NCBI GenBank assembly: GCA_018380195.1
Contig: JAGZUC010000003.1
Coordinates: forward strand, 55,769 to 119,768
Source: Collinsella sp.
GTDB taxonomy: Bacteria; Actinomycetota; Coriobacteriia; Coriobacteriales; Coriobacteriaceae
DNA length: 64,000 bases
Direction of reading: 5' to 3'
Position 1 is the first letter of the stretch. Every line of letters starts with the position of its first letter. This document shows positions 15,890-54,983 of this stretch, in pieces. The notes under the pieces were generated by a model. The model was not told the DNA's origin and did no database searches. It saw only the letters and a list, made by a program, of their open reading frames with translations. The translations under genes and the position numbers were made by a program.

Positions 15890-18721
15890 CTACTCCCCCA
15901 GCAGGGCCTTCTCGGGCGTGATGGGCAGCGAGCGAACCTGATGTCCGGTGGCGTGCGCCACGGCCGAGGCAACGGCGGCGAGCGGCGTGTTGATGACGAC
16001 CTCGCCGATCGACTTGGCGCCAAACGGGCCCGTCGGCTCGTAGCTCGGCTCAAAGGCCACGCGAATGCTGCCGATATCCAGGCGCGTGGGCAGCTTGTAG
16101 CTCATAAAGTTGCCGGTGCGCAGGCGACCACGGTCGTCGTGCTCGACGATCTCGTAGAGCGCGTGGCCGATACCCTGGGCAATGCCGCCCTCGGCCTGGA
16201 CGCGCGCGAGCGCCTCGTTGATCACGGTGCCGCAGTCCACAGCCGCCGCATAGTCCACAACAGTCACCTTGCCTGTGGCCTTTTCGACCTCGACCTCGGC
16301 AATGCCGGCCATAAACGGCGGGGGCGAAACGGGCAGGCAGGCAGAGGCATGCGAGGTGAGCGCGTCGCCGCCCGCGATGTTCTTGACGCACAGGTTGGCA
16401 AAGTCGCGCAGCGTGAGATAGCGGTTCTGCTCGCGCGCGGCACGCTCGTCGGACAGGCGCACATACTGGCCGTCGAAGACCACGTCGGCGGCGTCAACGT
16501 CCCACATCTGGGCGGCCTTGGCGCAAATCTTCTCGCGCAGCTCGGTCGCGGCGTTCTTGGCGGCAAGACCCGTCACGTACGTGCCCGAGCTCGCGTACGA
16601 GCCGGCATCGAACGGCGACACGTCGGTGTCCACGCCGCGCACCACGATCAGCGAGCTCTCCACGCCCAGCTCCTCGGCGGCAATCTGCGCCAGGATGGTG
16701 TCGACGCCCATGCCGTTATCGGTGGCACCGGTCGAAAGCGTAATAAAGCCGTCCTCTTCCAGGCGCAGGTCGATGCCGGCAATGTCGATGTTGGAGATGC
16801 CCGAGCCCTGCATGGTGAGCGCGCAGCCCAGGGCGCGCACGCGGTCGCCCAGGTCCACGGCCAGGGGCTTGTCGCGCCAACCGATCATGTCCATCGCGCG
16901 CAGCAAGCAGCGGTCGAGCGCGCAGGCGCTGAGCTTCTCGTTGTAGTACTGCGGCATGGTCTCGCCCTCGCGCACGATGTTCTTAAGGCGCAGGTCGGCA
17001 GGATCCATGTGCAGCATGTCAGCGAGCTCGTTGACGGCGCTCTCCACGGCAAACTGGCCCTGAGTGGCACCGTAGCCGCGATACGCGCCGCCGCGGTTGG
17101 TGTTGGTGTAGACGGCGTCCCAGCTAAAGCGGCTCGCCTTCACGTGGTTGTAGATCGGCAGGCTCTTGTGGCCCGAAAGGCCAATCGTCGTGGTAGCGTG
17201 CTCGCCGTACGCGCCGGCGTTGGACAGCGTGTGCAGGTCGATGGCCGTAATGGTGCCGTCGTTCATGGCGCCCAGCTTAACGGTCATCTGCATCTGGTGG
17301 CGCGAGTTGCCCGCGGTGATGGTCTCCTCACGCGTGTAGCAGCAGTAGCTCGGACGACCGGTCTGCTGGGTCACGAACGCCACGAAGATCTCGCAGCAGC
17401 CCGTCTGCTTGGAGCCAAAACCGCCGCCGATGCGCGGCTTGATGACCTGCACCTGCGACTGCGGAATGTCGAGCGACTGCGCGACCATGCGGCGCACGTG
17501 GAAGGGCACCTGCGTAGAGGTGGTCACCGAGATGCGGCCGAAGGCGTCGGTCGTCGCGAAGGCGCGGAAGGTCTCCATGGGCGCGGTCTGCGTGGCCTGG
17601 CTGGTGTAGGTGCGCTCAAAGACGATGTCGCTCTGGGCGAAGGCCTCGTCAAGGTCGCCAAAGTCGCTCGTGCCGCTGCACACCAGGTTGCGCGGAACGT
17701 CGCCGCCCTGCGGGAACATAAAGGTCACGTCGCCCTCGGGGTGAACCACGATGTCATTATCGAGTGCCTGGGTAAAGTCGAGCAGCGGCTCGAGCACCTC
17801 ATAGTCGACCTTAATGAGCTTGAGCGCCTTGTCGGCGGCCTCCTCGGTCTCGGCGGCGACAATCGCCACCTCCTCGTTTTGGTAACGCACCAGGTTCTCG
17901 AGAATCAGGCGGTCGTAGGGACTCGGCTGCGGATAGCTCTGGCCGGCGATGGTAAAGCGGCGCTTGGGCGCGTCCTCGTAGGTGTAGACACCCACGACGC
18001 CGGGCACCTTCAGTGCGCGCGACGTATCGATGGAGCGGATCTTGGCGCGGGCATAGGGGCTGCGCTTGAGTTTGACGATCAGGGCGCCGGCGGGCACCAT
18101 GTCGCCCGTGTAGACGGGACGGCCCTCGAGCAGCGCCTTCGAGTCTTTCTTGGGCTGCTTGTGGGTGATCTGCTTGTACGCGACACCGTCGGAGCTGGTG
18201 TTATTGACCGGCAGCTCGGGCATCTCGAAGCCCACCTGCACGCCGGACTCGTTGAGGAAGCGCACGATGGCACGCAGCTGGCTCTCGTAGCCGCTGCAAC
18301 GGCAGAGGTTGCCGGCAAGCTGGCGCGACAGCTCCTCGCGCGTGGCGACGAGGCTCGGGTCCTCCTTGGCGGCGCGGGCAAGCGCCAGCACGTTCATGAT
18401 GAGGCCGGGGGCGCAAAAACCGCACTGCTCGGCGCCTTCGGCGGCCATTGCGCGGGCGAGCGCCTCGGACTCGGCCTTAAGGCCCTCGAGCGTGGTGATA
18501 GTGTGGCCCTCAACACGGGCGGCGGGAACCGAGCAGCTCAGCACCGGGTCGCCGTCGAGCCACACCGTGCACAGACCGCAGTTGGTGGTCTCGCAGGCGC
18601 AGCGCACCGACGCGCAGCCCTGCTCGCGCAGCAGCGCAAAGAGCATGGTGTCGGGGGCAATCTGAACCTTGACCTTGCGGCCGTTGAGCGTAAAGGAAAG
18701 ATCGATGAGTTTGGCAGCCAT
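15890..18721 (-). CDS. xanthine dehydrogenase family molybdenum hydroxylase: fused [2Fe-2S] and molybdopterin-binding subunit (aldehyde-oxidoreductase-like)
   Basis: N-terminal plant-type and four-helix 2Fe-2S motifs (CxxGxCGxC...CGFC...CRCSGY), followed by an ~800 aa molybdopterin-binding portion. The ATG overlaps the upstream stop (TAATG). Confidence 0.85.
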   Translation of the reverse strand: MAAKLIDLSFTLNGRKVKVQIAPDTMLFALLREQGCASVRCACETTNCGLCTVWLDGDPVLSCSVPAARVEGHTITTLEGLKAESEALARAMAAEGAEQCGFCAPGLIMNVLALARAAKEDPSLVATREELSRQLAGNLCRCSGYESQLRAIVRFLNESGVQVGFEMPELPVNNTSSDGVAYKQITHKQPKKDSKALLEGRPVYTGDMVPAGALIVKLKRSPYARAKIRSIDTSRALKVPGVVGVYTYEDAPKRRFTIAGQSYPQPSPYDRLILENLVRYQNEEVAIVAAETEEAADKALKLIKVDYEVLEPLLDFTQALDNDIVVHPEGDVTFMFPQGGDVPRNLVCSGTSDFGDLDEAFAQSDIVFERTYTSQATQTAPMETFRAFATTDAFGRISVTTSTQVPFHVRRMVAQSLDIPQSQVQVIKPRIGGGFGSKQTGCCEIFVAFVTQQTGRPSYCCYTREETITAGNSRHQMQMTVKLGAMNDGTITAIDLHTLSNAGAYGEHATTTIGLSGHKSLPIYNHVKASRFSWDAVYTNTNRGGAYRGYGATQGQFAVESAVNELADMLHMDPADLRLKNIVREGETMPQYYNEKLSACALDRCLLRAMDMIGWRDKPLAVDLGDRVRALGCALTMQGSGISNIDIAGIDLRLEEDGFITLSTGATDNGMGVDTILAQIAAEELGVESSLIVVRGVDTDVSPFDAGSYASSGTYVTGLAAKNAATELREKICAKAAQMWDVDAADVVFDGQYVRLSDERAAREQNRYLTLRDFANLCVKNIAGGDALTSHASACLPVSPPPFMAGIAEVEVEKATGKVTVVDYAAAVDCGTVINEALARVQAEGGIAQGIGHALYEIVEHDDRGRLRTGNFMSYKLPTRLDIGSIRVAFEPSYEPTGPFGAKSIGEVVINTPLAAVASAVAHATGHQVRSLPITPEKALLGE

Positions 18722-19635
18722 TAGCGCACCTCACTAGAATCGACGCCGGGCACGCGGCGGCAGGAATACTCGTCCGTGGCAAACTTGGGGACCCGCACGG
18801 TCTCGAACTCGCGGGCAAGCGCGGCAGAAAGCTCGATGCCGGCGGCGCGGCGCACGGCCTGAATCGCCAGCGGGGCAGAGATGCGGAGGCGGTAGTCGGC
18901 CGAGCCCCACAGGTTGGTGCCGTAACTCAGGGCACGCACGGATGCGGCCAGAGCGCGAAACTCATCCTCGGAAGGCTGCTCGTTGATAAGGCCGCACGCC
19001 TCGTCCTGCAGCAGGGTCGCGCGCAGCGGGCGGGCGCCCACGGTGACATGCCAGCTGTTGTCCCACCAGGCGGCGGTGACGTTTAAGGAGGGGAAGTCGG
19101 TCGCGGCCTTGCGCACGGCCTCGTAGCTCGCACGGTAATCGTGCTTGACGACCACCACGTGCTCGATCACGTCGCGCACATAGCCCATGTCCACGAACTC
19201 GGCGAGCGGCACGCGGCCGGCGCCCGTTAGCTCAACATAGGAATCGAGCGCCAAAAAGGCCGAGAGCACGTCCGAAAAACCAAAGCGGCCGTAGATGCTG
19301 CCGCCCACCGTGGCGGTATTGCGCAGCTGCACGCCTACGATATCGTGGACGGCGAACTCAAAGACATTGTTGACAAGCGCGTTGAGCCCGGCATGACGTT
19401 CGAGCTGACGCAGGGTACACATGGCACCGATGCGAAACTCGGTCTCGGTCTCCTCGATCTGATCGAGTCCGCAGGCCGAAAGGTCAATCGCCGTCGCGAC
19501 GCGACGCGAACCCAGGCGCATCCAAATACCACCGCCCACAATCTTGTTGTTGCGGTTCTTCTGTAAGAGCTCATAGGCTTCGGCCGCGTTTCCAACACGG
19601 ACGTAGGTACCGAACTTGAGCACGTTCTCCCCCAT
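18721..19635 (-). CDS. xanthine dehydrogenase family FAD-binding subunit (CoxM-like)
   Basis: FAD-binding PCMH-type domain pattern (GGGIWM...ATVGGSI). The ATG at 19635 is preceded by GGAGAG at short spacing, so the start is moderately uncertain. Confidence 0.75.
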   Translation of the reverse strand: MGENVLKFGTYVRVGNAAEAYELLQKNRNNKIVGGGIWMRLGSRRVATAIDLSACGLDQIEETETEFRIGAMCTLRQLERHAGLNALVNNVFEFAVHDIVGVQLRNTATVGGSIYGRFGFSDVLSAFLALDSYVELTGAGRVPLAEFVDMGYVRDVIEHVVVVKHDYRASYEAVRKAATDFPSLNVTAAWWDNSWHVTVGARPLRATLLQDEACGLINEQPSEDEFRALAASVRALSYGTNLWGSADYRLRISAPLAIQAVRRAAGIELSAALAREFETVRVPKFATDEYSCRRVPGVDSSEVR

Positions 19636-21813: not shown

Positions 21814-22446
21814 CTAGGCGAGTAACTCGGCCGCCGCAAACTCCTCGGGCGTATTGACGTTCTCGAAGCAGAGCGTCGAGCCGGCGACCGCGACAATCTG
21901 AGGCTCGTCCAAATACCCGGCATTCACCCGGTCGATCAGGCAGCGGATTCGCTGACGGTCATCGGCGAGCAGCTCTTGGGCAACCGGCGCACACGCGACA
22001 CGGCGCCAGACGGCGCAAAGCGGCTCAATCCCCCGCTCCTCGCGCGGCACGCACACGTCGAGTGCCTCGGCCTCAGCACGATCGGCAAGCGCGCCGATGA
22101 GTTCCGGCGAGACAAACGGCATATCGCAGGCGACGATCGCCACGAGCGGCAATCGGGCCGCGGCCAACGAGCTCGCGATGCCGCGCATGGCACCGGCGGG
22201 ACCGTCGACGTCCATCACCACGCGGGGGCGCAGGCCATCAAACATAAACTCCTCAAGATAGGCAAGCTCGCTGGGACGCGAAGTCGTCACGACCAACTCG
22301 CCGGCAACTGGCGTCAGCCGACCCAGCACGCGCTCGATGAGCGGCTCGCCGCAAAACGCCATGCGCGCCTTATCGCAGCCCATGCGCGACGACAACCCGC
22401 CCGCCTGGACGACACAAGAAAGATCGGCACGTCTTACGGTAGTCAT
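21814..22446 (-). CDS. mobA: molybdenum cofactor guanylyltransferase
   Basis: N-terminal VVQAGGLSSRMG...DKA motif. Start at MTTVRR, 10 nt after GGAGGTG. The track ORF extends 96 codons upstream with no support. Confidence 0.75.
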   Translation of the reverse strand: MTTVRRADLSCVVQAGGLSSRMGCDKARMAFCGEPLIERVLGRLTPVAGELVVTTSRPSELAYLEEFMFDGLRPRVVMDVDGPAGAMRGIASSLAAARLPLVAIVACDMPFVSPELIGALADRAEAEALDVCVPREERGIEPLCAVWRRVACAPVAQELLADDRQRIRCLIDRVNAGYLDEPQIVAVAGSTLCFENVNTPEEFAAAELLA

Positions 22447-22753
22447 ACGACAAAACACCTCCATCGGCATGCTCGAAACCCGATGCACGAAGCTAAATAC
22501 AGCCGCCGAAATAGCGGCGCTACGAAAAGCTCGTGCAAAAACAAAACAGCGCCTTTGCGGCACGCAGCAAGACCGCGAGCACAAAAGCGCTGGTAGCGTA
22601 TGGCGGGAACGTATGTGAATCGAACACATCCAAGACGTTTTGCACGCCTCGCAACGGTTTTGAGGACCGCGGAGCCCACCGGAGCCCATCCGTTCCCAAG
22701 TGCGGCGGTATTTTACCAAACCGACAGGCCCCATCCCAAAAAGACAAGCAAGA

Positions 22754-22819
22754 AGTTGCGGTGGAATAGTTCCTGGTTTGGCGTTAGATGCCGAAAACAG
22801 GAACTATTTCACCGCAACT
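22754..22819. repeat. palindromic element copy 2 (variant stem AGTTGCGGTGGAATAGTTCCTG / CAGGAACTATTTCACCGCAACT)
   Basis: Seen directly. Compensatory changes relative to copy 1 keep the stem paired. Lies just downstream of the selB stop. Confidence 0.85.
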
Positions 22820-22844
22820 GAGAAGGCGGGGGCGGGTGACCGGC

Positions 22845-24812
22845 CTAGCGTAGGGAGCGCAGGCCGCCGGCTTCCTTGTCGAGCACCGTAAAGCGCACGG
22901 CATCCAGGTGTTCCAAAATGCTGATGGCGCGCTTGCGCGACACACCCAGGGCCTCGCGCAGCACGCTCGTGGTGGCAGCGCCACCGGCATCGGCGATGGC
23001 GGCGGCAACAAGCTCGCGCGCATGGGCCTCGGCGGCAGCGGACAGGGCAACGTCGCGCTCGACCTTCACGATCGAGCGGTTGAGCGAAAGCTCGCGCAGG
23101 GCACGCGTCATGGTGTCGCGATCGAGCTGCAGTTGCTCGCCCACCTCGGGCAACGTCGGTGCATCGAGGCCGGCTTCGTCCAGCAAGGCAACGATACGTT
23201 CGCAGGCTTCGCGAACCACGCGTGCCGCCGCGGCGGCCGAATGCGGATCGAATACCTCGGCGCCCTCGGCGGCGCACACACCACGCGAGCAGCCCTCGGC
23301 AATCAGAGCCGCGGCAACGCCTTCATCAGCGGCAGACCACGCAGCATGGGCAACGGCGCCAGGCGTAAAGCCCGTCTCCTTGGGAGCCGCCGTGTGCATG
23401 GCTGACAGGGTCGCCGCCAGTGCATCCATCGCGGCGTCGAGCACCGTGGCGTCCGCCAAGTAGTCCGCATCACCCACGGCAAGCTTGCGAACGGAGCCCT
23501 GCGACACCAACCCGCGCAGTGCGGCATCGACCTCGCCGACACCAAGATCCAAAGCGTCGGTAACATCAACCGCCGTAACCGGCAGCATCTGCAGCGCCAG
23601 CCAAGCGCCCACACCGCCCGCGGTATCGCCGGCCTCAAGCGCTGCAAGCAGCGTGCGCTCCCCCGCCGAAAGCTCGCGCGAGCGGCGGCAGCGCGAAAGC
23701 AGCACGCGCCCGCCGCCGATGAGCATAACGGGCGAATACGACAGCACCACGGCGTGGTCTCCGGCGCGCAGCGGCAGCGGCTCCTCCAGGCGCACCTGCA
23801 CGGTACGGGTCTCGCCCACCGCCATGGGGGCCTCGCCCTCCAAAAGCATGATGCGACCGACATCCTCGGCCGTGCCGGCCATCACATGCACGCGCACACC
23901 CGGCTCGAGCACACGCGGCTTGGCTCCCTCACGGCCCAGGTAGGTGAACGTCATCATAAAGCGTAACGTCTGACCAAAGCGATTCGCCACGCCCAGCAAC
24001 TCGCCGCGGTCAAGCGCCGCGACACCGTCACCAACTAGGTTGAGCGCCACACGCTGACCAGGCAGCGCGCGCGGCGTATCGCCATGCACCTGAATCCCGC
24101 GCACGCGACAGACCGTACGCGACGGCAAAGCCATCAGCTCATCGCCCACCGCAACCGGCGCATCGTGCAGCGTTCCCGTCACGACGGTGCCGGCGCCCTT
24201 GATCGTAAAGCAGCGGTCGATGGGCAGGCGAGGCGAGGCGCCGCTCCGATCGGAACGGTCGCGGCAGGAATCCCAGCAGGTACCAACCTGATCGTCAAGC
24301 GCTGCCAGCAGCGCATCAATCCCCGCGCCGGTCTTAGACGAAACAGGCACGATCGGCGCGTCCGCAAACACGGTACCCGACAAAAAGTCATCGACGTCGA
24401 GCTCGGCAAGCTCGATCATCTCGCTATCGGCCAGGTCGCACATCGTAAGCGCCACCACCATATGCGTGACGCCCAGCAGCTCCAACACGTGCACGTGCTC
24501 GCGCGTCTGCGGCATTACGCCCTCCACGGCAGAGACCACCAGCACGGCAACGTCGACGCCCGTCGCACCCTGCACCATGGCGCGCAAGTAATGTGCGTGA
24601 CCCGGCACGTCGACCAGACCAACGATCTTGCCACTCGGCAGCGCCAGCTCGCCAAAGCCCAGCTCCACGGTCATGCCACGACGGCGCTCAACCTCCAGAC
24701 GGTCGGGGTTTTTACCCGTAAGCGCCTCGATGAGCGCCGACTTACCGTGGTCGACATGACCCGCCGTGCCAACGATAACGGGACACTCCACCAGCGCCTG
24801 AACCTCACTCAT
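22845..24812 (-). CDS. selB: selenocysteine-specific elongation factor
   Basis: GTPase motifs AGHVDHGKS, DVPGH, MCD. Long C-terminal winged-helix region typical of SelB. The start overlaps the selA stop (ATGA). Confidence 0.88.
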   Translation of the reverse strand: MSEVQALVECPVIVGTAGHVDHGKSALIEALTGKNPDRLEVERRRGMTVELGFGELALPSGKIVGLVDVPGHAHYLRAMVQGATGVDVAVLVVSAVEGVMPQTREHVHVLELLGVTHMVVALTMCDLADSEMIELAELDVDDFLSGTVFADAPIVPVSSKTGAGIDALLAALDDQVGTCWDSCRDRSDRSGASPRLPIDRCFTIKGAGTVVTGTLHDAPVAVGDELMALPSRTVCRVRGIQVHGDTPRALPGQRVALNLVGDGVAALDRGELLGVANRFGQTLRFMMTFTYLGREGAKPRVLEPGVRVHVMAGTAEDVGRIMLLEGEAPMAVGETRTVQVRLEEPLPLRAGDHAVVLSYSPVMLIGGGRVLLSRCRRSRELSAGERTLLAALEAGDTAGGVGAWLALQMLPVTAVDVTDALDLGVGEVDAALRGLVSQGSVRKLAVGDADYLADATVLDAAMDALAATLSAMHTAAPKETGFTPGAVAHAAWSAADEGVAAALIAEGCSRGVCAAEGAEVFDPHSAAAAARVVREACERIVALLDEAGLDAPTLPEVGEQLQLDRDTMTRALRELSLNRSIVKVERDVALSAAAEAHARELVAAAIADAGGAATTSVLREALGVSRKRAISILEHLDAVRFTVLDKEAGGLRSLR

Positions 24813-26266
24813 CGTGCAACCGCCTTCTCAACGCACGCGACGAGCGTCGATGCCGCCGTCTCGATATCGCGGTCGCCCACGAGCGTGCGCACATCAAACA
24901 GAATGCGGTCGTGCGAGGCGCGCGTGACGACCGGCGTATCGAAGTCTTGAACGAGCGAGCGCTTGAGCGCGTCGACGGACAGGCGCCCGTCGACCGGGCA
25001 GACGGCCACGCACATCGTGGGTAGCTCCACGGTAGGCAGCGAGCCGCCGCCGGGAGTCGACGACTCCTCGACGATCTCCACCTGAACGGCGCACGGGCAA
25101 CCCGCCTTATCGAGGCCCGCCACCATCAGATCGCGCAACTTGCGTGCGCGACGCTCCAGATGGGCCTGCGGAAGCGTGAGCATATTGAGCACCGGTACCT
25201 CGCGATGGGCCACATCCGCCCCATCCATGTAAATACGTAGTGTAGCCTCGAGCGCCGCCAGTGCGAGCTTGCCCGGGCGCAGGGCACGCATAAGCGGATG
25301 CGACCCGCAGGCCTGGACCAGATCGCGACGGCCCATGATAATTCCCGCTTGTGCGGCACCGAGCAGCTTATCGCCCGAGCATGACACGATATCGAGCCCC
25401 GCCGCGACCGAAGCCGGCGTGGGTTCCTCGCCGCCGTGTACCAAGATGTCGTCGGGCAACAGCGCGCCCGAGCCCTGGTCCTCGTAGAACAGCAGGCCAT
25501 GCTTGTGGGCCAGAGCGGCAAGCTCCCGAGAGCCCACCTCCTCGTGAAAACCCTCGATGCGATAGTTGGAAGGATGGACCTTAAGGATCATCGCCGTATC
25601 GGGCGTGATGGCGCGCTCGTAGTCGCCTAGGTGCGTGCGGTTGGTGGCGCCGACCTCGACGAGTTTGGCGCCCGAAGCCGCCATGACATCGGGGATGCGG
25701 AAGCTGCCGCCGATCTCGACAAGCTCGCCGCGGCTGACGATGACCTCTTTGCCTGCGGCATGGGTCGCCAGCACCAGCAGCACAGCGGCGGCGTTGTTGT
25801 TAACGACCAGCGCGTCCTCGGCACCGGTAAGCGAGCGGATGAGCTGCGCGGCATGCTCCTTGCGCGACCCGCGCGAGCAGGTGTCCACGCTGTACTCGAG
25901 CGTGCTGTAGCCGCGCGCGACCTCGGCCACGGCCTTTGCCGCCGACTCCGCGAGCGGGGCGCGACCCAAGTTGGTATGGATGACCACGCCCGTAGCGTTG
26001 ACGGCAGGGCGCAGGCTCGGCAGCGCGGAGCGGTGCGCACGCCACTCGATGGCCGAAGCAAGGTCGCGCTTAGAACGCGGGGTGGCGCCGGCGCGAATGG
26101 CGGCGCGCTCCTCGTCGAGCTCAGCCGTCACGGCAACATGGACCACCGCGTCGCAGGTCTCCCCCGCCGCCTTCACCACCGGCCACTCGGCAAGCAGCTC
26201 GTTAACGGAAGGAATGGCGCGCAGGCGGGCGCGCACCTCATCGGACATGTTCTGGCTATCGCTCAT
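24809..26266 (-). CDS. selA: L-seryl-tRNA(Sec) selenium transferase
   Basis: SelA N-terminal region and PLP-lysine context (SGDKLLGAAQAG). AAAGG ribosome-binding site 7 nt upstream. Confidence 0.88.
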   Translation of the reverse strand: MSDSQNMSDEVRARLRAIPSVNELLAEWPVVKAAGETCDAVVHVAVTAELDEERAAIRAGATPRSKRDLASAIEWRAHRSALPSLRPAVNATGVVIHTNLGRAPLAESAAKAVAEVARGYSTLEYSVDTCSRGSRKEHAAQLIRSLTGAEDALVVNNNAAAVLLVLATHAAGKEVIVSRGELVEIGGSFRIPDVMAASGAKLVEVGATNRTHLGDYERAITPDTAMILKVHPSNYRIEGFHEEVGSRELAALAHKHGLLFYEDQGSGALLPDDILVHGGEEPTPASVAAGLDIVSCSGDKLLGAAQAGIIMGRRDLVQACGSHPLMRALRPGKLALAALEATLRIYMDGADVAHREVPVLNMLTLPQAHLERRARKLRDLMVAGLDKAGCPCAVQVEIVEESSTPGGGSLPTVELPTMCVAVCPVDGRLSVDALKRSLVQDFDTPVVTRASHDRILFDVRTLVGDRDIETAASTLVACVEKAVAR

Positions 26267-26342: not shown

Positions 26343-28460
26343 TCAATCGCTATTATCCTCGCGTGCCGCGATCTTTTCCACGCGAACGGCGTTTTCCTGG
26401 GTGAGCGCAGCGCCCGTCAACGGGTCCCAACGCAACGGCGTATGGTCGAGCGGGCCGACGCCAAGTGCCTGGGCGCCATCCGCGCCAGCGCCAAACGAAC
26501 GCCCGCCGGGAGCCGCCGACGTAAAGATGCACGCCGGGTGCAGATAGGGCGTCGTCTCCACGCGCACGCGATCGCGACCCATGTCGCTCACAAGCTCGAC
26601 GATCTCGCCGTCGACGATGTCCATGCGCGCAGCAGCATCGGCATTCATCTGCACGGCATCCAGGTCCGATCCGGCCTCGGCGGCACCTTGGGCCGCAAGC
26701 CTTCGCGAGGTATGCGACTCAAAGGGACGGTTGCCGCTAATGAGGCGAAACATCCCCGGACCGGGCTCCACCATGGGAGCGATCCAGTTGGGTACACGAC
26801 CCAGACCGGCTCGTTCCCATACGTCGCTTGCCAGCGCAATTTTGCCGCCATCCAAGGGAATCGCCGACTCGCCCGTACGCGACGGCAACGCAACACCCGT
26901 GTCGGCCCAGCCGCACTCCTTGAGCTCGTCCAGATTGATCCCAAAAGGCGCCACCTGGGCAGCCGCCAGATCGTCAGACGTAAACTGGAAGTACTCGCCC
27001 ACGCCACACGCCTGCGCCAGACCGGCAAAAATCTCCCGACCGGGACGTGAGTCGTCATGCTGCACAGGCAGCACGGCGTTGCGGTAGAACACGCGCGCAT
27101 CGTTGGCGCCCACGACCGTACCCACACCGCGGTCGGCCTCCAGATACGTCACGTCGGGCAACACGAAGTCAGAAGCACGCGCCGTCTCGGACCAGCGAAT
27201 ATCAATCGTCACGAGCAAGTCGAGCTGCTGCAAAATACCCAACCAAGCCTGCGCGTTGCCATAACCCGCACCGGGGTTACTGGCATAGACGATGAGTCCA
27301 CGCAAATCGCCGGCAAGAATCGACTGACCGATGGTCGTACACAGGCCGCGCACCGGATCGACCAGTGGATAGCGCTCGGACCCCAGCTTGGGCCCGCGTG
27401 GCACCGGCGGCGTCGCAAAGCGTGCGGGATCGAGGTCGCCCAACACAAGCGGCGTGGGCGGGTTGAGCGCGCCGCCCGCGTGTCCGATGCAGCCCAGCAG
27501 CACATCGACCAAGCAAATAGCGCGCGCGGTCTGGGTGCTATTGGCATACGCGATACCGATGCCGCCATGAAAGCCCGCGTCCACCACAGCGGCAGGCGCG
27601 GCGGCAGCGAGATCGCGCGCCGTGGCGACAATCTCTGCGGCCGGCACGTCGCACATCGACTCGGCCCACTCGGGCGTCCAAGCACGGGCCGCCTGCGCCA
27701 GCTCGTCAAAACCCGTGGTATAGCGGGTCACGAACTCATGGTCATACAGGTCCTCGGCAATCAAGACATGCGCAATGCCCAGCAGCAAGGCCAAATCGCA
27801 TCCGGGACGCACGCGCAGCCAGCGGTCGGCAATAGCAGCCGAACCGCTGCGCCGAGGGTCAACCACGATAATCTTCGTCCCACGGCGACGGGCATCGTTG
27901 AGCGCATCAACGGCCCCCATCGTCGATGAATCGACAATGGAACGCCCCAGATACATGATGCAATCGGTGTGCGCGAGGTCGGAGGCGGGACTATAGCCCA
28001 GGCTGTGCTCCCAACCGGTAAGTCGGCTTACTTCGCAGGCACCGTCTGCACCGTATACGTTGGGCGAGCCCAGCGCATGCATAAAACGACACGCCCAGTA
28101 GCGGTCGAACGAGGGCACGCCGAGCGTCATGCCCAGCGCACGAGGCCCGCACTCGTCAACAATCCCCAAAAGACGCTCGGCAATCCGAGCAAACGCCTCG
28201 TCCCAGGAAATCGCATCAAACCCTGAGCCATCAGCTCGTCGGCGCATGGGGTGCACAATGCGGTCGCGCTCGTCAAACGGCATTGCCAGGCGATGCCGTC
28301 CGCGGGCGCACAGGGCACGCGCCGCGCACGGATGCCCCGGCACCGGCAGCTCGGCCACCACACGCCCATCCTCAACATGGGCCGCAAAGGCGCAATCGGC
28401 ATAGCATCCCCCGCATGTGGTCACCACGGCGCGACCGTCGCGCTTCACAGCAGATGCCAT
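26343..28460 (-). CDS. molybdopterin oxidoreductase, DMSO reductase family, cytoplasmic
   Basis: N-terminal CxxCxxxC [4Fe-4S] motif (TTCGGCYADC). No twin-arginine signal. Start at MASAV with AAAGGGG upstream. Confidence 0.75.
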   Translation of the reverse strand: MASAVKRDGRAVVTTCGGCYADCAFAAHVEDGRVVAELPVPGHPCAARALCARGRHRLAMPFDERDRIVHPMRRRADGSGFDAISWDEAFARIAERLLGIVDECGPRALGMTLGVPSFDRYWACRFMHALGSPNVYGADGACEVSRLTGWEHSLGYSPASDLAHTDCIMYLGRSIVDSSTMGAVDALNDARRRGTKIIVVDPRRSGSAAIADRWLRVRPGCDLALLLGIAHVLIAEDLYDHEFVTRYTTGFDELAQAARAWTPEWAESMCDVPAAEIVATARDLAAAAPAAVVDAGFHGGIGIAYANSTQTARAICLVDVLLGCIGHAGGALNPPTPLVLGDLDPARFATPPVPRGPKLGSERYPLVDPVRGLCTTIGQSILAGDLRGLIVYASNPGAGYGNAQAWLGILQQLDLLVTIDIRWSETARASDFVLPDVTYLEADRGVGTVVGANDARVFYRNAVLPVQHDDSRPGREIFAGLAQACGVGEYFQFTSDDLAAAQVAPFGINLDELKECGWADTGVALPSRTGESAIPLDGGKIALASDVWERAGLGRVPNWIAPMVEPGPGMFRLISGNRPFESHTSRRLAAQGAAEAGSDLDAVQMNADAAARMDIVDGEIVELVSDMGRDRVRVETTPYLHPACIFTSAAPGGRSFGAGADGAQALGVGPLDHTPLRWDPLTGAALTQENAVRVEKIAAREDNSD

Positions 28461-28521
28461 CTCGATTACCCCTTTCATCAGCCAAACACAACAGGCCAAA
28501 AGCCCGGCAACGAGCCCCAGA

Positions 28522-28560
28522 CCCAAAAAGCCTCCCGCACGGCAACGCCCCGCGGGAGGC
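28522..28560 (-). terminator. intrinsic terminator downstream of focA
   Basis: GCCTCCCGC-N13-GCGGGAGGC followed by TTTTTGGGTC on the minus strand. Confidence 0.75.
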
Positions 28561-41174: not shown

Positions 41175-43397
41175 CTACACGATTTGATTCACGTGCGTCT
41201 CGTCGTCGAACTTGGCGGCGCCGGGCTCAACGTCCTGAGGAGCGGCGGCGTCCACCAGAGCCTGCTTAAGCTCGGTGTACTGACGCTCGACCTCGCCCTC
41301 AGCCCAGACCTGGTCGGCGATAGCGTCGACCTGGCAGGCGGAGAACTTGTCCTCGGGCGTATGCGAGACCGGGTCGACCTTGTGAATGGTCAGCTCGTTG
41401 CACTTGCCAATCCACCACTGGTAGGTCATATAGACCGTGCCCTTGTTGATACGGTCGCTCACGTCGGCGCGGCTGTATACCTGGCCGCGGCGGCTGTGAA
41501 TCGAGACGATGTCGCCGTTCTTGATGCCGCGCGCCTGGGCGTCCGCGGGATTCATGCGGACAAAGCCGGGCTCGTCGGCGAGCAGCGCCAGCGTCTTGCA
41601 GTTGCCGGTCATCGAGCGGCAGCTGTAGTGGCCGACCTCACGGACGGTGCACAGGATGAGCGGGTACTCATCGTCGGGAAGCTCGGAGGGCGCCTCCCAG
41701 TCGTGCGCCATCAGGTTGGCGCGGCCGTCCTTGGTGGTGAACTTGCCACCAGCGAACATGTCGGCCGTGCCGTGGTCGTTCACATCGGTGCTCTTGACGG
41801 GCCACTGGGCGTAACCGCCCTCGGGAGCCATCTTCTCGTAGGTTGCGCCCACAAAGTTGGGGCACAGGCTAATGCACTCGTTCCAGATCTGCTCGGTGTT
41901 GTCGTAGTGCATGGGGTAGCCCATGCGCGTAGACAGGTCCGCGAAGATCTCCCAGTCGTGGCGGCACTCGCCCTTGGGCGGAACAGCCGCGTCAAAGTGC
42001 TGGAAGCTACGGTCGGATGCGGTAAAGACACCCTCGTGCTCGCCCCAAGAAGTAGCGGGCAGGATGACGTCGGCGAGCATAGTCGTCTGCGTCATAAAGA
42101 TGTCCTGGCAAATGAACAGATCCAGCTCGGAGAGCGTCTTGCGCATGCCGGCCGAATCGGGCTCGGTCTGCACCGGGTCCTCGCCGTAGTTGTAGAAGCA
42201 ATGCACCTTGCCCTCGTCGACCAGGTGGCCCAGGTCGGTGAGCTTGTAGCCCTCCTCCAAGGGGAGCTTTTCCTCGGGCACGCCCCAAGCCTTGGCAAAC
42301 TTGGCGCGAGCGGCGGGGTCGGTGACTTTCTGGTAGCCAGGGTACAGGTTGGGCAGCATGCCCATATCGCAGGAGCCCTGGACGTTATTCTGACCGCGCA
42401 CGGGCGCGAGGCCGGAATTGGGTTTGCCGATCTGGCCGGCAACGCAGGCGATGGAGGCGATGGTGTGCACCGTCTTCAGGTTCTGCTTCTGCTGGCATAC
42501 GCCCATGCCCCAGCCAATGATGGCAGAGGGCTTCGCCGTGGCGTACATCTCGGCAGCTTGGTGGATCAGCGCGGGCTCGACACCCGTGATGTCCTGTACA
42601 GATTCGGGAGTGTAGTTCTTGATGGTCTCCCACCACTCGTCAAAGCCGTTCGTGTGCTCGGCGACGAATTCCTTGTCGTAGAGGCCATCGTTGACCAAGC
42701 AGTTGGCAAAGGCGTTGAGGAACGCAACGTTGCAACCGTTCTTGATCGGAAGGTAGAGATCGGCGATACGCGCGGTTTCGATATGGCGCGGATCGGCGAC
42801 GATGATCTTGCAACCCTTTTCTTTGGCTCGCACGATACGCCTTGCGACGATGGGGTGCGAATCGGCAGGGTTATAGCCGAAGAGGAAAATGCAGCCCGCA
42901 TCCTCCATACCGGGGATGGAGCATGACATGCAACCTGAACCAACCGTGTCCATCAGACCGAGGACAGTAGGGCCGTGTCAAGTACGGGCGCAGTTGTCCA
43001 CGCTGTGGGTGCCGATGCACGCACGCGTAAACTTCTGCATGACGTAGTTCGCCTCATTGCCGCCGCCTCGCGAGGAGCCGGTGGTCATGACAGCGTTAGG
43101 ACCATATTCGTCAATTATGGCCTGCATCTTAGATGCGGTGAAATCCAGTGCCTCGTCCCAGCTTACGCGCTCAAGATCCGCGCCCTTAGTGCGGCGGATC
43201 ATCGGGTGCAGTACGCGAGGAGTCAAGATCTTGGTGTCGTTGATGAAGTCGTAGCCGCTCATGCCCTTAAGGCACAGCTCGCCCTGATTGGTGATGCCGT
43301 TGAGCGGTTCGGTACCCACGACCTGGCCGTTTTGGACCAGGAGGTTAAACTGGCAACCGGCGCCACAATACGGGCAGATCACTTTATGCTTCTCCAT
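41175..43397 (-). CDS. fdhF: formate dehydrogenase H, selenocysteine-containing (in-frame TGA at 42978-42980)
   Basis: The track ORFs 41175-42953 and 42978-43505 lie in one frame, separated only by a TGA. Translation across it reads VDNCART-U-HGPTVLGL, which matches E. coli FdhF VDNCARV-U-HGPSVAGL. N-terminal CPYCGAGC [4Fe-4S] motif. Start at MEKHKVICPYC with AAGGAGG upstream. Confidence 0.88.
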
Positions 43398-43420
43398 GAC
43401 ACCCTCCTTCCTTTCTCTGC

Positions 43421-43436
43421 TACCGATTAATCGGTA
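43421..43436. promoter_or_regulatory. perfect 16 bp palindrome TACCGATTAATCGGTA upstream of fdhF, next to a TTGACA hexamer
   Basis: Seen directly in the 76 bp gap between the ferredoxin gene and fdhF. Confidence 0.4.
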
Positions 43437-43473
43437 CGTATTTGACAATCGTTGGGCCTGTATGGCCGCCCGC

Positions 43474-43992
43474 CTACGCCTCGTTTTCGATGGTGGCGCG
43501 GGCACGCTCGGCGGTTAGTTCCGCCAGGCGCTCCTCGTCTACCAGGGTGAGGCCCTTGGTCGGGCACGCCTCGGCACACGCCGGACCGCCGGGACGGTCC
43601 ACGCACAGGTCGCACTTGAGCACGAAGCTCTTAGTCTGCGAACCCACGCGCACGTCGCCCATCAAGACGGGGACCTGCGTGGTCGCCACGCTCACGGCGC
43701 CAAAGGGGCAGGCCATGACGCAGCTCTTGCAGCCGATGCAGTTGTCCTCGTTAACACCGATGCGATGGTTCTTTGGATCAAAGAACAAGGCACCCGTGGG
43801 GCAGGCCTTGGCGCACGGGGCATCCTCGCAGTGATGGCAAGCCACCGGTGCGGAGATCTCGTAGGTGCGCGTTACGCGCAAGCGAGGTGCGGCGATGTTG
43901 CCGGGAATATCGTGTGCCTCGATGCACGCCGCCATACAGGTTTGGCACCCAATGCAACGTGAGGAATCGGCTACGACTCGTTTATTGCCCAT
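43474..43992 (-). CDS. 4Fe-4S dicluster ferredoxin-type protein (HycB-like), first gene of the formate hydrogenlyase operon
   Basis: Multiple CxxCxxCxxxCP motifs. Start at MGNKRVV with AGGAGGGAG upstream. The track ORF extends 36 codons further with no support. Confidence 0.8.
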   Translation of the reverse strand: MGNKRVVADSSRCIGCQTCMAACIEAHDIPGNIAAPRLRVTRTYEISAPVACHHCEDAPCAKACPTGALFFDPKNHRIGVNEDNCIGCKSCVMACPFGAVSVATTQVPVLMGDVRVGSQTKSFVLKCDLCVDRPGGPACAEACPTKGLTLVDEERLAELTAERARATIENEA

Positions 43993-48356: not shown

Positions 48357-49496
48357 CTAGCAGGCTAAATCGCGCAAAGCGTCAATCGCGGTGTCGACTT
48401 CCTCGTCCGTGTTGAAATACCCAAACGAGAAGCGAACGACACCCTGGCGCTCGGTCCCCAGCGCACGGTGCATGAGCGGGGCGCAATGGGCGCCGGGGCG
48501 CGTCGCAATCCCCCGCCCTTGCATGAGTGCATCCGAGATCTCTGCAGAGTCGATATCGCCCACGTTGAGCGACACAATCGCAGAGCGCGTCGGTTGGTCA
48601 AACGCACCGTAGAGCTTAATCCCCGGAATCTCGCACACGCCGGCAAGGAAGCGTTCAGCGAGCGCACGCTCGTGCGCCGTAATCGCCTCGACCCCGCCCT
48701 GGGCCTCGATAAAGTCGAGGCCGGCAGAAAGGCCGGCGATACCGTGGCCGTTGAGCGTGCCCGCCTCCAGGCGCGTGGGCCACTCAAGCGGCTGCAGCGC
48801 ATCGAAGCTGTGCACGCCTGTGCCGCCCATGGCCCACGGCGCCACGTCAATGCCCTCCGCCACGGCCAGCCCGCCGGTCCCCTGCGGACCCATGAGGCCC
48901 TTGTGGCCAGTAAAGCACACCACGTCGAGCCCCATGGCCTGCATATCGATATGCGCCGTGCCGGCAGACTGCGAGGCATCGACAATCACAAGCGCGCCGG
49001 CCGCATGGGCCATGGCGGCCACGCGCGCAATGTCGACCTCATTGCCGGTCACATTGGAGGCGTGCGTCACCACCACAGCACGCGTGGCCGGCGTGACCAA
49101 CCGCTCGAGCTCGTCATAGTCGAGCACGCCGTTCGCGTCGCAGCCCGTATGCTCAACGGTAACACCCTGCTCTGCCGCCAAGCGGTTGAGCGGACGTAGC
49201 ACCGAGTTGTGCTCAAGCACCGTCGTGACCACGCGGTCGCCGGGGCGCACCACGCCATTGATAACGGTGTTGAGCGCCGCGGTGGAGTTGGGCGTAAAAC
49301 ACACATGGTCCGCCCTCGGGCAACCCAAAAGGCGCGCGAGCTTGGCACGGCAAGCGTGAATCGTACGAGCGGCATCGAGGGGACCCGACGTGGCGCCGCG
49401 CCCGGCATTGCCGAGCGAGCACATCGCCTGCGTCACGGCATCGATGACCGTCTGCGGCTTGTGCATGGTCGTCGCCGCGTTATCCAGATAGATCAT
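48357..49496 (-). CDS. class V aminotransferase: cysteine desulfurase / selenocysteine lyase family
   Basis: PLP fold with HK motif (TGHKGLMGPQG) and a C-terminal active-site Cys region (GAHCA). Start at MIYLDNAATT. Overlaps the upstream stop. Confidence 0.8.
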   Translation of the reverse strand: MIYLDNAATTMHKPQTVIDAVTQAMCSLGNAGRGATSGPLDAARTIHACRAKLARLLGCPRADHVCFTPNSTAALNTVINGVVRPGDRVVTTVLEHNSVLRPLNRLAAEQGVTVEHTGCDANGVLDYDELERLVTPATRAVVVTHASNVTGNEVDIARVAAMAHAAGALVIVDASQSAGTAHIDMQAMGLDVVCFTGHKGLMGPQGTGGLAVAEGIDVAPWAMGGTGVHSFDALQPLEWPTRLEAGTLNGHGIAGLSAGLDFIEAQGGVEAITAHERALAERFLAGVCEIPGIKLYGAFDQPTRSAIVSLNVGDIDSAEISDALMQGRGIATRPGAHCAPLMHRALGTERQGVVRFSFGYFNTDEEVDTAIDALRDLAC

Positions 49497-49744
49497 CGCA
49501 CGACCTCCCACATATCAATCACGGTATAGCCCTCGGTGGGAACACCCGCCTCGGCGAGTTCGCCGCGCAGCAGTTCCTCATCGGCAGGCAACGCCTTCCA
49601 CGCCAGACCGCAGCCGGCAGCGACCTCCCCGGGCACGGGAATCGTTCGCCCGGGAAGGCCGCGCTCGATGCACAGGGACTCGCAGCCCATGGCGGCCGCC
49701 GTGGTGGGAAACGTGATGACAAGCGCCGGGCGCTTCTCCCTCAT
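49493..49744 (-). CDS. DUF3343-like small protein (putative Se/S carrier)
   Basis: Paralogous to the C-terminal half of the 21403-21798 product. Start at MREKRP with TTGGAGTTGCC upstream. Confidence 0.6.
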   Translation of the reverse strand: MREKRPALVITFPTTAAAMGCESLCIERGLPGRTIPVPGEVAAGCGLAWKALPADEELLRGELAEAGVPTEGYTVIDMWEVVR

Positions 49745-49763
49745 GGCAACTCCAACCAATACG

Positions 49764-50390
49764 CTACGGGCGCACGACGCGCACGGCCTGCTCCATCTTC
49801 TCCACGATCACGTACATGTTGGTGACCTCGCCCACCGCAAGCTGGTCTTTAATGCCATAGTGGTCGAGGCAGGTACCGCAGGTAAGAATCTCGACACCCT
49901 GCTCGGCCAGGCCCTTCAGGTCATCGAGCACCGGCGAGCCCTCGACGGTGAGCTTGGCGCCGCCGTTGTAGAACAGCATAGTCGCGGGCAGCTCCTCCTG
50001 CTGCGTCACGGCAAAGATAAACGCCTTCATGAGCTTGTGGCCCAACTCGTCGTCGCCACGGCCCATGCAATCGGTGTAGACGGAAATGACGAGTTTGCCC
50101 TTGCCGGCGCTGGCGTCGCAAAAAGCAACACCGTCCTGCTCGGGGTCCGCAACGGCCACGGCACCGGCGGTCACGACAGTCACGTGCCACTCGGCGTCCG
50201 AGACCTTCTCGACCGAGGCCGTGCAGCCCTTCTCCTGCGCCATCTTGGAGATGTTCTTGACGGCGGTCTCGTTATCGACCGCAGTCACGACGGCGCCCTC
50301 GCCATTAAGCTGTTTGAGTGCCTTAAGCGTCTTGACGACGGGCAGCGGGCAGGCATCGCCCATGGCATTGACTTCAATTTTGGTAGACAT
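49764..50390 (-). CDS. yedF: YedF-like selenium metabolism protein (TusA-like N-terminus, DsrE-like C-terminus)
   Basis: N-terminal CPxP motif (AMGDACPLPVV) and a DsrE/DsrF-like C-terminus. GAAAGGA ribosome-binding site. Confidence 0.75.
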   Translation of the reverse strand: MSTKIEVNAMGDACPLPVVKTLKALKQLNGEGAVVTAVDNETAVKNISKMAQEKGCTASVEKVSDAEWHVTVVTAGAVAVADPEQDGVAFCDASAGKGKLVISVYTDCMGRGDDELGHKLMKAFIFAVTQQEELPATMLFYNGGAKLTVEGSPVLDDLKGLAEQGVEILTCGTCLDHYGIKDQLAVGEVTNMYVIVEKMEQAVRVVRP

Positions 50391-50447: not shown

Positions 50448-51497
50448 TTAACGGACAACGCGAACGGCAGGACCACCTGGCACCGGCACGCACACGCGAC
50501 CGACGACGGCGGCGATACGTCCTTCAGCATGTAGACGGCACGCAAGCTCATCAACATCGGCAGCAGGTGCCGCGATGAGTAGGCCACCAGACGTCTGCGG
50601 ATCGTACAGCGCATCCAGCATGCCCGGCTCCAGATCCTCGTCGGCAGCCACACGCGGGCCAAAGAAGTCCTGGTTGCGGTAGGAGCCCGCGGGGATAATG
50701 CCCAGACGCGCCATGTCGAGCACCTGATCAAAGAGCGGCACCGATCCCGACGCAAGCTCAACTTGCACGCCCGAGCCCTCGGCCATCTCGCACGCGTGCC
50801 CGATCAGGCCAAAGCCCGTAATGTCGGTGCAGCCGTGAAGTTCGAGCCCCTCGGCCAGACGAATCGGCGCCTCGTTGAGGGTGCGCATCGAGTCAAACAT
50901 GGCTGCGGCCTCGTCCTGCTCGATAAGCTCGCCCTTAATGGCCGTGGTGATGATGCCCGAGCCGATCGCCTTGGTCAGCAGCAGAACATCGCCCACGCGT
51001 GCGCCGCTGTTAGCGAGCATGCGGTCGAGCGCGACAAAGCCGCTCACGGACAGGCCGTACTTGGGCTCGTCGTCGTTGATGGTATGGCCGCCCGCGATGG
51101 AGCAACCCGCCTCGACGCACTTGTCGGCGCCGCCCGCCAGAATCTGACCGGCAACCTCGATGCCCAGACAACTGGGTATGCAGAGTAGGTTCATGGCATG
51201 GCTCGGCCGCCCGCCCATGGCGTAGATGTCCGACAGCGAGTTGGCCGCGGCAATCTGGCCAAACAGAAACGGGTCGTCGACCATCGGCGGGAAGAAGTCG
51301 ATGGACTGCACAAGCCCCAGGTTCTCCCCTACGCGGAAGACGCTCGCATCGTCAGAAGTATCGAACCCCACGAGCAAGTTGTCGTTATGCACATTTGGCA
51401 AGTCGCCCAGGACCTGGGCGAGGGCTCCAGGAGCCAACTTAGCGGCTCAACCGCTCGCGGCCGTCATAGACGTGAGCTTAATCTGATGGTCAGCCAT
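50448..51497 (-). CDS. selD: selenide, water dikinase, selenocysteine-containing (in-frame TGA at 51447-51449)
   Basis: The track ORF starts at MAPGALAQVL and lacks the conserved SelD N-terminus. Reading upstream in frame through a TGA gives MADHQIKLTSMTAASG-U-AAKLAPGALAQVL, which matches the E. coli [21 protein letters not shown] region with Sec at the Cys/Sec position. GAGAGGAGG ribosome-binding site 6 nt before the ATG at 51497. A GGCUCCUGGAGCC hairpin lies 11 nt after the UGA. Confidence 0.85.
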
Positions 51498-51567
51498 CGA
51501 TACCTCCTCTCATCGGGCAATCATTTTCTCCGAGTATACGCATGAATGCGAGCCTACGGCGGATGCA

Positions 51568-53699: not shown

Positions 53700-54983
53700 C
53701 TAAATGGTTTCCAAGAAAGCCTCAATCCTGGTTTGCAGCTGGCCTGCGTCCTCGCCGGCGTAGTCGGTGGTGATATGCATAAACGGAATGCCCGCCTCCT
53801 CGGCGGCCTTCTCCACGGCAAACGACTCCATCTCGTAGAGCGTGCAGAACTGCAGGGCCACGTCGACGATGCCGTCGGCATGCAGGTCCTTGGCCATCTG
53901 GACAATGTCCTTCATACGCTGGTCGTTGGGCGTAAAGACGGCGCAGTTGATCTTAAAGTAGCGCTCGGCGATGGCATCAAGCATCTCGTCGACCGTCTCA
54001 CCGGACTCGTCGACCAGATCCTTGTAGTAGCGCGAACCCGTGCAGGACTCCTCGCCCACCACGACGCCGCCGGCCTTCTCGATGAGGTTGAACAGCTTCC
54101 AGTTGGGCACAGCCATGGGCGTACCGGTGTACAGGATGCGCTTGGTCCCCTTGGGTGCCACGCCCTCGCCGGCCTCGACACGTTGCTCGCACTCAGCCGC
54201 CATATCATTAATGGCGCCGGTCAGACGCGGCGTGTCGTCCATAAAGGCGGCCTGAACGGTCAGCAGGCTGTCCAGACCGCTGATGGGCGCTGGGTCGGCA
54301 GTGCGCGTGGCAGCGAGGCGCTGCAGGGCGCGACGCTTCTCATTGACGGCGTGGATGGCGGCCTTCAGACGCTCAGGCGTAATCGTGACGCCGCACTCTT
54401 CCTCGATCTTGGCGGCGAGCTTCTTGACCTCGGCCTTCCAGGTCACGAGCGTCGACTCGTCGTGCACGTTGGGAATATCCATGACGTACATGCTCTTTTG
54501 CGTGGCAAAGAACTCGTAGGCCTTCTTCTTACCGTCGCAGGTGTTCTCGCCTACCACCAAGTCACTCGACTCAATGTAGGGGCAGACCTCGCCCAGCTTA
54601 AAGCCGGCAAAGCTCTTGATGAGCGGACAGGTGTTGCGCGGCAGGTGCTCCTCGACCTTGTCCGTTGCCCAGTCGGCACCCGAGCACAGGCCCACGGGGA
54701 TGCCGTCACAGGCGAGCACAATCTCCTCGGGCACGTAGACGCAGAAGCTGCCAACAATCTTGGTGGCCTCGCCGGCCTCCTTCTTGTCGAGCATCTCCTT
54801 AATGCGGCCGCTGTGGATGTTGGTGGCGACAAAATCCAGGTAGGACGTGGACTTAGGGCGATTATTCTGCGTCAGGAACATATCGCCGTACATCTGGCCC
54901 ACGGCACCCAGCAGCATGTCGTGGTCGGCAAGATTCATGCCGAGGCTCTCCCACATCGGATGGAAATCAAATTCTTCAGCCAT
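53700..54983 (-). CDS. 2-hydroxyacyl-CoA dehydratase / YjiM-like family protein (HgdB/BcrC/BadD type)
   Basis: Conserved Cys pattern (CSGADW...NTCPLIK...CPYIE...ENTCDGKKK...ESCTGSRYY). GAGAGGGG ribosome-binding site. Confidence 0.75.
   Translation of the reverse strand: MAEEFDFHPMWESLGMNLADHDMLLGAVGQMYGDMFLTQNNRPKSTSYLDFVATNIHSGRIKEMLDKKEAGEATKIVGSFCVYVPEEIVLACDGIPVGLCSGADWATDKVEEHLPRNTCPLIKSFAGFKLGEVCPYIESSDLVVGENTCDGKKKAYEFFATQKSMYVMDIPNVHDESTLVTWKAEVKKLAAKIEEECGVTITPERLKAAIHAVNEKRRALQRLAATRTADPAPISGLDSLLTVQAAFMDDTPRLTGAINDMAAECEQRVEAGEGVAPKGTKRILYTGTPMAVPNWKLFNLIEKAGGVVVGEESCTGSRYYKDLVDESGETVDEMLDAIAERYFKINCAVFTPNDQRMKDIVQMAKDLHADGIVDVALQFCTLYEMESFAVEKAAEEAGIPFMHITTDYAGEDAGQLQTRIEAFLETI

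Follow-up and report, generated by a model that had tools for sequence, protein, structure and literature searches.

Only one bacterial selenoprotein is more widespread than SelD (selenide, water dikinase, or selenophosphate synthetase) (Zhang et al. 2006, PMC1794560; also PMC13188914), and 19% of prokaryotic SelD genes carry selenocysteine (Sec), always at one position (Mariotti et al. 2015, PMC4561486). In the Sec-type SelD of Haemophilus influenzae, Clostridia, and Deltaproteobacteria, a UGA occupies the single conserved Cys/Sec position of the glycine-rich loop, a selenocysteine insertion sequence (SECIS) stem-loop lies within the coding sequence just downstream of the UGA, and selA, selB, and selC co-occur with a Sec-type formate dehydrogenase. 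The selD gene described here lies in a 64,000-nucleotide (nt) stretch of a Collinsella sp. genome (assembly GCA_018380195.1, contig JAGZUC010000003.1, positions 55,769 to 119,768), referred to below as the window. It resembles these genes in each of the three respects, the stem-loop being a predicted one, and shows no categorical difference from them, Collinsella being the representative of Coriobacteriia. For Collinsella aerofaciens, Table 1 of Zhang et al. (2008, PMC2432076) lists SelD as a 1,035-nt feature directly beside a 627-nt SirA-like gene. As 1,035 nt is longer than the 990-nt open reading frame (ORF) that follows the TGA in the window, and as the adjacent yedF in the window is also 627 nt, the listed C. 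aerofaciens SelD probably runs through the UGA. The Sec-type selD of the window is ordinary, being already known down to the species.

E. coli SelD (3U0O) is colinear with the Collinsella protein over 346 residues, with residue 17 and Lys20 in register and the same AIRS fold, but has Cys (UGC) at the critical position and lacks a SECIS, whereas Collinsella has a predicted Sec (UGA) with a hairpin downstream. SelD of Aquifex aeolicus (2ZOD/2YYE) comes from another phylum and is approximately 40% identical to the Collinsella protein outside the catalytic loop, but the loop itself, SSG-C-AAKVGPG in the structure alignment, is nearly identical to the ASG-U-AAKLAPG of Collinsella. Native Aquifex SelD is also a selenoprotein and was reportedly crystallized as a Cys mutant. 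The gene order at the Collinsella locus is that of the selD-sirA/yedF-nifS-like operon of Enterococcus faecalis (the "third selenium utilisation trait," PMC2432076; SclA, PMC13188914); the E. faecalis SelD is an orphan Cys-type protein without Sec decoding, whereas the Collinsella operon is found in a Sec-decoding genome.

From the sequence comparisons that follow, the gene was identified as selD of a bacterium of the C. aerofaciens group, and the enzyme that it encodes as a selenoprotein, with a probability of approximately 0.92. The frame on the minus strand reads MADHQIKLTSMTAASG, followed by TGA at codon 17 (51449-51447) and AAKLAPGALAQVL..., and ends at a stop codon at 50450-50448. A reading of the DNA made earlier from the letters alone (the sequence-only reading) had proposed that an in-frame TGA was missed by the ORF track, and this was confirmed, with the initiating ATG at 51497-51495. 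The corresponding entry in the ORF list begins only at TTG 51437 and encodes 329 amino acids (aa), which explains the truncated selD ORF noted in that reading. Its strong ribosome-binding site was also found: GAGAGGAGG precedes the ATG by a 5-nt spacer (TATCG), so that the "6 nt" given earlier was essentially right, and other Collinsella loci have GGAAGGGGG at an equal distance from the ATG instead. All that the reading stated about the sequence proved correct.

The 349-residue protein was scanned against profiles with Cys in place of the stop. The NCBIfam SelD model TIGR00476 scored 360.6 bits (cutoff, 125) over residues 7 to 312, a match that begins upstream of the TGA, as expected from the earlier proposal that this region is the conserved SelD N terminus, and NF002098 scored 323.6 bits (cutoff, 299) over residues 2 to 337. 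An alignment to E. coli SelD 3U0O spans residues 1 to 346 (229.7 bits) and is gap free over the first 31 positions, placing the UGA of codon 17 at E. coli Cys17 and Lys20 at Lys20; the Cys/Sec correspondence suggested by the sequence-only reading, which was to be checked by aligning the extended translation to SelD families, is thus borne out. This alignment to a solved structure covers both AIRS domains, PF00586 and PF02769, which are precomputed on all close SelD homologs. Database searches identified full-length Coriobacteriia orthologs with approximately 60 to 68% identity that have Cys at precisely the TGA site (..AAGCAAKLAPG..), while the close relatives (at least 77% identity; those with a name are Collinsella) are without exception deposited at a length of approximately 329 aa with the same cut point. 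On the strength of these alignments, the 16 codons upstream of the TGA are genuine SelD coding sequence.

Conservation was examined in a genome scan of 80 Collinsella loci (L001 to L080; 95 to 98% protein identity), in 73 distinct Collinsella gene variants, and in 11 more divergent metagenome loci with called SelD proteins 68 to 86% identical to the query. The TGA, the ATG, and the open 16-codon frame between them were kept in 80/80 Collinsella loci, in which variation across codons 8 to 16 is mostly synonymous. All 11 divergent loci also have TGA at codon 17, giving 91/91 Sec-type loci in all, and the peptide (K/R)LT(S/Q)MT.A.G precedes it down to 68% overall protein identity. The Cys-type orthologs L092 to L094 have TGC or TGT at codon 17. 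Among L001 to L080, at least three contexts were observed over the 33 nt upstream of the ATG and codons 2 to 7: one has ...GAGAGGAGGTATCG-ATG with MADDQIK and another ...GGAAGGGGGTTCGT-ATG with MAKDTMR, and mixed pairings occur. These contexts point to a recombination breakpoint or to differing upstream neighbors right at the selD start. In L081, a glycosyltransferase gene lies between the activase gene and selD.

The genes for tRNA-Sec, SelA, SelB, and SelD are all four located inside the 64-kb window. Together with the Sec/Cys alignment, the Cys of the Coriobacteriia orthologs, and the universal TGA, the presence of selA, selB, and the tRNA-Sec gene upholds the central claim of the sequence-only reading that SelD is a selenoprotein. 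The tRNA-Sec, selB, and selA genes form one cluster (22601-26266, minus strand), in which the stop of selA and the start of selB share 4 nt (24809-24812).

The window contains a second selenoprotein gene, fdhF, encoding a formate dehydrogenase. It emerged from a scan for other ORFs interrupted by a single TGA and followed by SECIS-like hairpins, the output of which was otherwise mostly out-of-frame noise; fdhF itself was missed by the hairpin filter of that scan because of a bulged U in the stem. Its translation across the TGA reads ...DNCART*HGPTVLGL..., and the ORF track splits the gene into 42978-43505 and 41175-42953. The RNA downstream of the fdhF UGA folds into a canonical SECIS, GUCCUC-GGUCU-GA(U)GGAC, with loop nucleotides G23 and U24 counted from the U of UGA, in agreement with the numbering of the E. 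coli fdhF SECIS. This element served as an internal reference for the RNA that the SelB of this host recognizes.

Folding of the minus strand downstream of the selD UGA, a check suggested by the sequence-only reading, did reveal a SECIS-like apical loop, but not in the hairpin that had been named. That hairpin, here termed H2, exists and begins 11 nt after the UGA (51435-51423). A second hairpin, H3, follows it, and a third, H1, is formed when GAGCC (overlapping the UGA) pairs with GGCUC and dominates the fold of the free RNA. It is H3 that, given Sec insertion, sequence evidence marks as the probable SelB-binding element. Across 20 distinct sequences, its pairs are formed in 100% of cells. 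The fourth pair is C-G in 15 rows, U-A in four, and G-C in one, and three further pairs include G.U wobbles. At the covarying pair, the base on the 3' side alters the amino acid (GGC Gly to AGC Ser or CGU Arg), and a synonymous substitution in an Ala codon of the 5' arm matches it. In isolation, H3 folds at -13.1 kcal/mol (z = -3.8; 0/200 shuffles fold as well), with a pairing probability of at least 0.95. When the 73 nt after the UGA were folded whole, the result was not significant (z = -1.0), and only the isolated H3 stands out. Synonymous variation is also reduced here: among 344 seven-codon windows of the 73 variants, those that begin at codon 24 and at codon 25 rank third and fifth lowest in synonymous codon entropy (0.04 to 0.06, compared with a selD mean of 0.40), while the base immediately outside the H3 stem, at the third position of codon 32, varies freely (0.97 bits). 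In Cys-type orthologs, H3 loses one to four of its eight pairs.

The bSECISearch criteria, as quoted in PMC13188914, are an apical loop of 3 to 9 nt, an upper stem of 4 to 16 bp, a UGA-to-loop spacing of 16 to 37 nt, a minimum free energy of -7.5 kcal/mol or lower, and a G in the first two loop positions following the pattern N1-G-[G/U]-N-N2. H3 conforms to this bacterial SECIS (bSECIS) model whether it is drawn as an 8-bp stem with the 3-nt loop GUC or as a 7-bp stem with the 5-nt loop GGUCC. The loop G-G-U-C-C follows the pattern, with N1 (G) paired to N2 (C), and its GU is invariant in 20/20 distinct sequences. The energy lies well below the limit, as do those of divergent relatives (-11.0 and -10.0 kcal/mol). 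The apex, CA-GGUC-CUG, resembles that of the fdhF SECIS both in the window and in E. coli. Like the archetypal E. coli fdhF element, H3 is a GGUC-capped stem (GCA-GGUC-UGC in E. coli, CCA-GGUC-CUGG in selD), but it has a perfect 8-bp stem without a bulged U, and its GGUC is 14 nt more distant from the UGA. Extension of H3 by a lower stem was considered and rejected, as the flanking columns lose complementarity across strains.

Several observations weigh against H3 as the SECIS. Its GGUC motif begins at nt 36 (51414) when the U of UGA is nt 1, compared with nt 22 in fdhF (42959; both on the minus strand); this 14-nt offset leaves the UGA-to-apical-loop spacing, at 32 to 33 nt, within the 16- to 37-nt range but near its far end. 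The covariation consists of a single strongly covarying pair and some wobbles, all among related sequences, and the shuffle control applied to it is not equivalent to a probability. No SECIS family was found by Rfam, either at gathering thresholds across the whole window or at E values up to 10 over 51330-51530, where the sole match was a chance ctRNA (E = 1.2). H3 is also not strictly Sec specific, since the Cys-type L092 keeps 7/8 of its pairs. This locus (L092:122-1177) is the closest Cys-type ortholog, with 68% identity, a TGC codon, and a GGUUC apex. Retention of a fossil SECIS after Sec-to-Cys conversion is a documented pattern (PMC1794560), and the L092 hairpin looks like such a remnant of a recent conversion, as far as its sequence can tell.

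The alternative that survives best keeps H3 and adds H2 to it. In such a composite SECIS, H2 would fold up and shorten the path from the UGA to H3 to an fdhF-like effective distance (11 to 12 nt), with both hairpins contributing. The 14-nt offset between selD and fdhF equals the 13 nt of H2 plus 1 nt; when the first 11 nt are left out of the fold, both hairpins form, separated by 1 nt; and RNAalifold predicts both. Codons 24 and 25 (GGA GCC, 51428-51423), which make up the 3' arm of H2, are four-fold degenerate yet invariant in the 73 variants, a constraint beyond what H3 alone explains. Codon 22, the proposed pairing partner of this arm, varies between GCU and GCC, and Cys-type orthologs use GGC at the site of codons 24 and 25. 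Against the composite, H2 is weakened or re-registered in 15/73 Collinsella variants and in L086, H2-type pairing is also present in Cys-type genes, and the consensus model allows spacings of 16 to 37 nt without any compaction. We therefore consider the composite unlikely, and likewise a two-hairpin variant of the selD SECIS in which H2 folds away a 13-nt spacer and one SelB serves two SECIS geometries. If selD did carry such a variant, its read-through, and hence the whole selenophosphate supply of the cell, could be tunable by the strain-variable stability of H2 (GCU versus GCC).

That H2 is by itself the SelB-binding SECIS, as the sequence-only reading had suggested, is improbable. The minimal E. 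coli fdhF SECIS element is reported to lie 11 nt from the UGA, the same distance as H2. Moreover, 95% of H2 cells are paired, and H2 forms at a probability of 0.97 if the ribosome is assumed to occupy the UGA and the 11 nt after it. A U-A to C-G double change occurs in two divergent sequences, so that an accessory role is possible. However, H2 sits on GCU CCU GGA GCC, encoding Ala-Pro-Gly-Ala; the general pattern GCN CCN GGN GC is self-complementary, and any RNA encoding this peptide therefore brings the pairing with it. The pairing is correspondingly not specific to Sec-type genes, with 5/5 pairs formed in the Cys-type L093 and 4/5 in L092 and L094. The H2 loop, CUG or CCG, has no G in its first two positions, its energy of -5.8 kcal/mol falls short of the -7.5 kcal/mol limit, and 20/200 shuffles fold at least as well; H2 alone is not more than chance. 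In 15/73 Collinsella variants, GCC opposite the invariant GGA creates an uncompensated C.A mismatch (-1.7 kcal/mol). In the free RNA, H2 is outcompeted by H1 and has a pairing probability of 0.003, and it lacks the GGUC motif that H3 shares with the fdhF SECIS of the same genome. From its sequence context, H2 appears to result mostly from the Ala-Pro-Gly-Ala codons, with at most a spacer or accessory function. H1 was likewise rejected as a SECIS, as it shows no double changes, has a mismatch in 4/20 rows at one pair, and would be melted when the UGA is in the ribosomal A site.

It is highly improbable that the TGA is a genuine stop, with a 329-aa SelD initiated at TTG 51437 and a short leader ORF formed by the 16 codons ahead of the TGA. 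Gene callers do predict this form, and close database homologs are stored at that length. The product, though, would be missing two catalytic-loop residues, the Sec/Cys at position 17 and Lys20, and the TTG is not preceded by a Shine-Dalgarno motif; re-initiation there is excluded on these two grounds. The profile match starting at residue 7, the conserved peptide ahead of the TGA, and the colinearity of Cys-type orthologs through the region upstream of the TGA also speak against it. Least credible of all is a sequencing error or inactivating mutation that would make selD a pseudogene in this strain, for although the window does hold one strain-private nonsense mutation (a TAA in a double-cubane-cluster reductase gene, where 52/52 related Collinsella loci covering the site have CAA [Gln]), the TGA at codon 17 is conserved in 80 Collinsella and 11 divergent loci, all independent, which excludes it.

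With Sec insertion at the selD UGA directed by H3 as the favored reading, expression of the gene would proceed as follows. Translation would start at ATG 51497 behind the strong Shine-Dalgarno site, and the ribosome would meet the UGA at codon 17. SelB, carrying GTP and Sec-tRNA(Sec), would bind the GGUC-capped H3 (51421-51403) and deliver Sec, so that termination does not occur; the binding of SelB to H3 and the insertion of Sec are both inferred from sequence. The predicted product is a 349-residue SelD with an N-terminal glycine-rich loop, ..SG-U-AAK.., containing Sec17 and Lys20. It would make selenophosphate for Sec-tRNA synthesis, serving at least SelD and FdhF, and probably also feed a selenium-dependent molybdenum hydroxylase pathway. 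Selenium-dependent feedback on the level of SelD, which the sequence-only reading had put forward as autoregulated selenophosphate synthesis, would be a hypothetical consequence. The idea of autoregulation is not new and goes back to the question posed in the title of Guimaraes et al. (1996, PNAS 93:15086, as listed in PMC1717018).

These results carry a point for annotation. As standard ORF callers treat UGA as a stop, selD is cut to 329 aa and fdhF is split in two, and most database copies of Collinsella SelD are consequently without the catalytic Sec17/Lys20 loop. Judged by its gene content, Collinsella, an abundant genus of the human gut, appears to combine Sec decoding with a selenium-activating enzyme that is itself selenium dependent; the relevance lies in the selenium economy of the gut and is not new in kind. 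The modest addition made here is the placement of the likely SECIS at 51421-51403 with support from covariation, and its long spacing compared with that of fdhF in the same genome. The features of the window are listed in Table 1.

Table 1. Coordinates of selD, its RNA elements, and selenium-related genes in the 64,000-nt window
Feature	Coordinates	Strand	Detail	Evidence
selD, full coding sequence	50448..51497	-	349 codons plus stop, predicted Sec at codon 17	Translation; TIGR00476, residues 7-312; 3U0O alignment, residues 1-346
selD ATG start	51495..51497	-		Sequence and translation; kept in 80/80 loci
UGA, predicted Sec codon	51447..51449	-	Residue 17, equivalent to E. coli SelD Cys17	Alignment and conservation
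Shine-Dalgarno-like sequence	51503..51511	-	GAGAGGAGG	Sequence; conserved in most Collinsella loci
Hairpin H3, probable SECIS	51403..51421	-	UCGCCCAG-GUC-CUGGGCGA	Fold, covariation, synonymous constraint
Hairpin H2, SECIS candidate of the sequence-only reading	51423..51435	-	GGCUC-CUG-GAGCC, GGCUCCUGGAGCC; begins 11 nt after UGA	
fdhF-type formate dehydrogenase, second selenoprotein gene of the window	41175..43397	-	UGA at 42980-42978	TIGR01591, 828 bits
tRNA-Sec (selC)	22601..22697	-	Anticodon TCA	ARAGORN; Rfam RF01852, 64.6 bits
selB, selenocysteine-specific elongation factor	22845..24812	-		TIGR00475, 281.6 bits (cutoff, 242)
selA, selenocysteine synthase	24809..26266	-		TIGR00474, 516.4 bits (cutoff, 268)
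yedF/SirA-like selenium-metabolism sulfurtransferase	49764..50390	-	627 nt, directly downstream of selD	TIGR03527, 215 bits; Pfam TusA and DsrE
Small putative Se/S carrier protein	49493..49759	-		PF11823
Class V aminotransferase, cysteine desulfurase/selenocysteine-lyase-like (SclA-like)	48357..49511	-		TIGR01977, 414.9 bits

The order selD, yedF/SirA-like gene, PF11823 carrier gene, and class V aminotransferase gene recurs in relatives. Against the SclA model NF040779, the aminotransferase scored 352 bits, below the cutoff of 525.

A molybdopterin oxidoreductase gene (26343-28526, minus strand) adjoins selA, and the closest match of its product is thiosulfate/polysulfide reductase (2VPW, 225 bits). 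Its identification as a Sec-type formate dehydrogenase was considered and rejected, as the frame is uninterrupted and Cys is present in the segment aligned to the molybdenum-ligand region. Three neighboring genes (15890-19635 and 21814-22734, both minus strand) encode a molybdenum hydroxylase of the xanthine dehydrogenase family (943 aa), an FAD subunit, and a MobA-like protein. The FAD subunit has a weak, below-cutoff match to TIGR03312 (Se_sel_red_FAD, molybdopterin-dependent oxidoreductase FAD-binding subunit). The listed extent of the MobA-like ORF runs into the tRNA-Sec gene, which means that this ORF must in fact begin at a more downstream position. C. aerofaciens has been listed with the "third selenium utilisation trait," with an aldehyde oxidoreductase approximately 31.7 kb from selD (PMC2432076); the molybdenum hydroxylase, FAD subunit, and MobA-like set fits that listed trait, and its distance from selD is equal here.

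Just upstream of selD, the double-cubane-cluster reductase gene mentioned above (NF040772; 52383-53630, minus strand) is interrupted by the in-frame TAA at 53270-53268. This stop was rejected as a further Sec codon, being TAA rather than TGA and private to the strain, and the comparison with relatives identifies it as either a sequencing error or a nonsense mutation confined to this strain rather than recoding. The double-cubane reductase gene has an intact paralog at 53700-54983.

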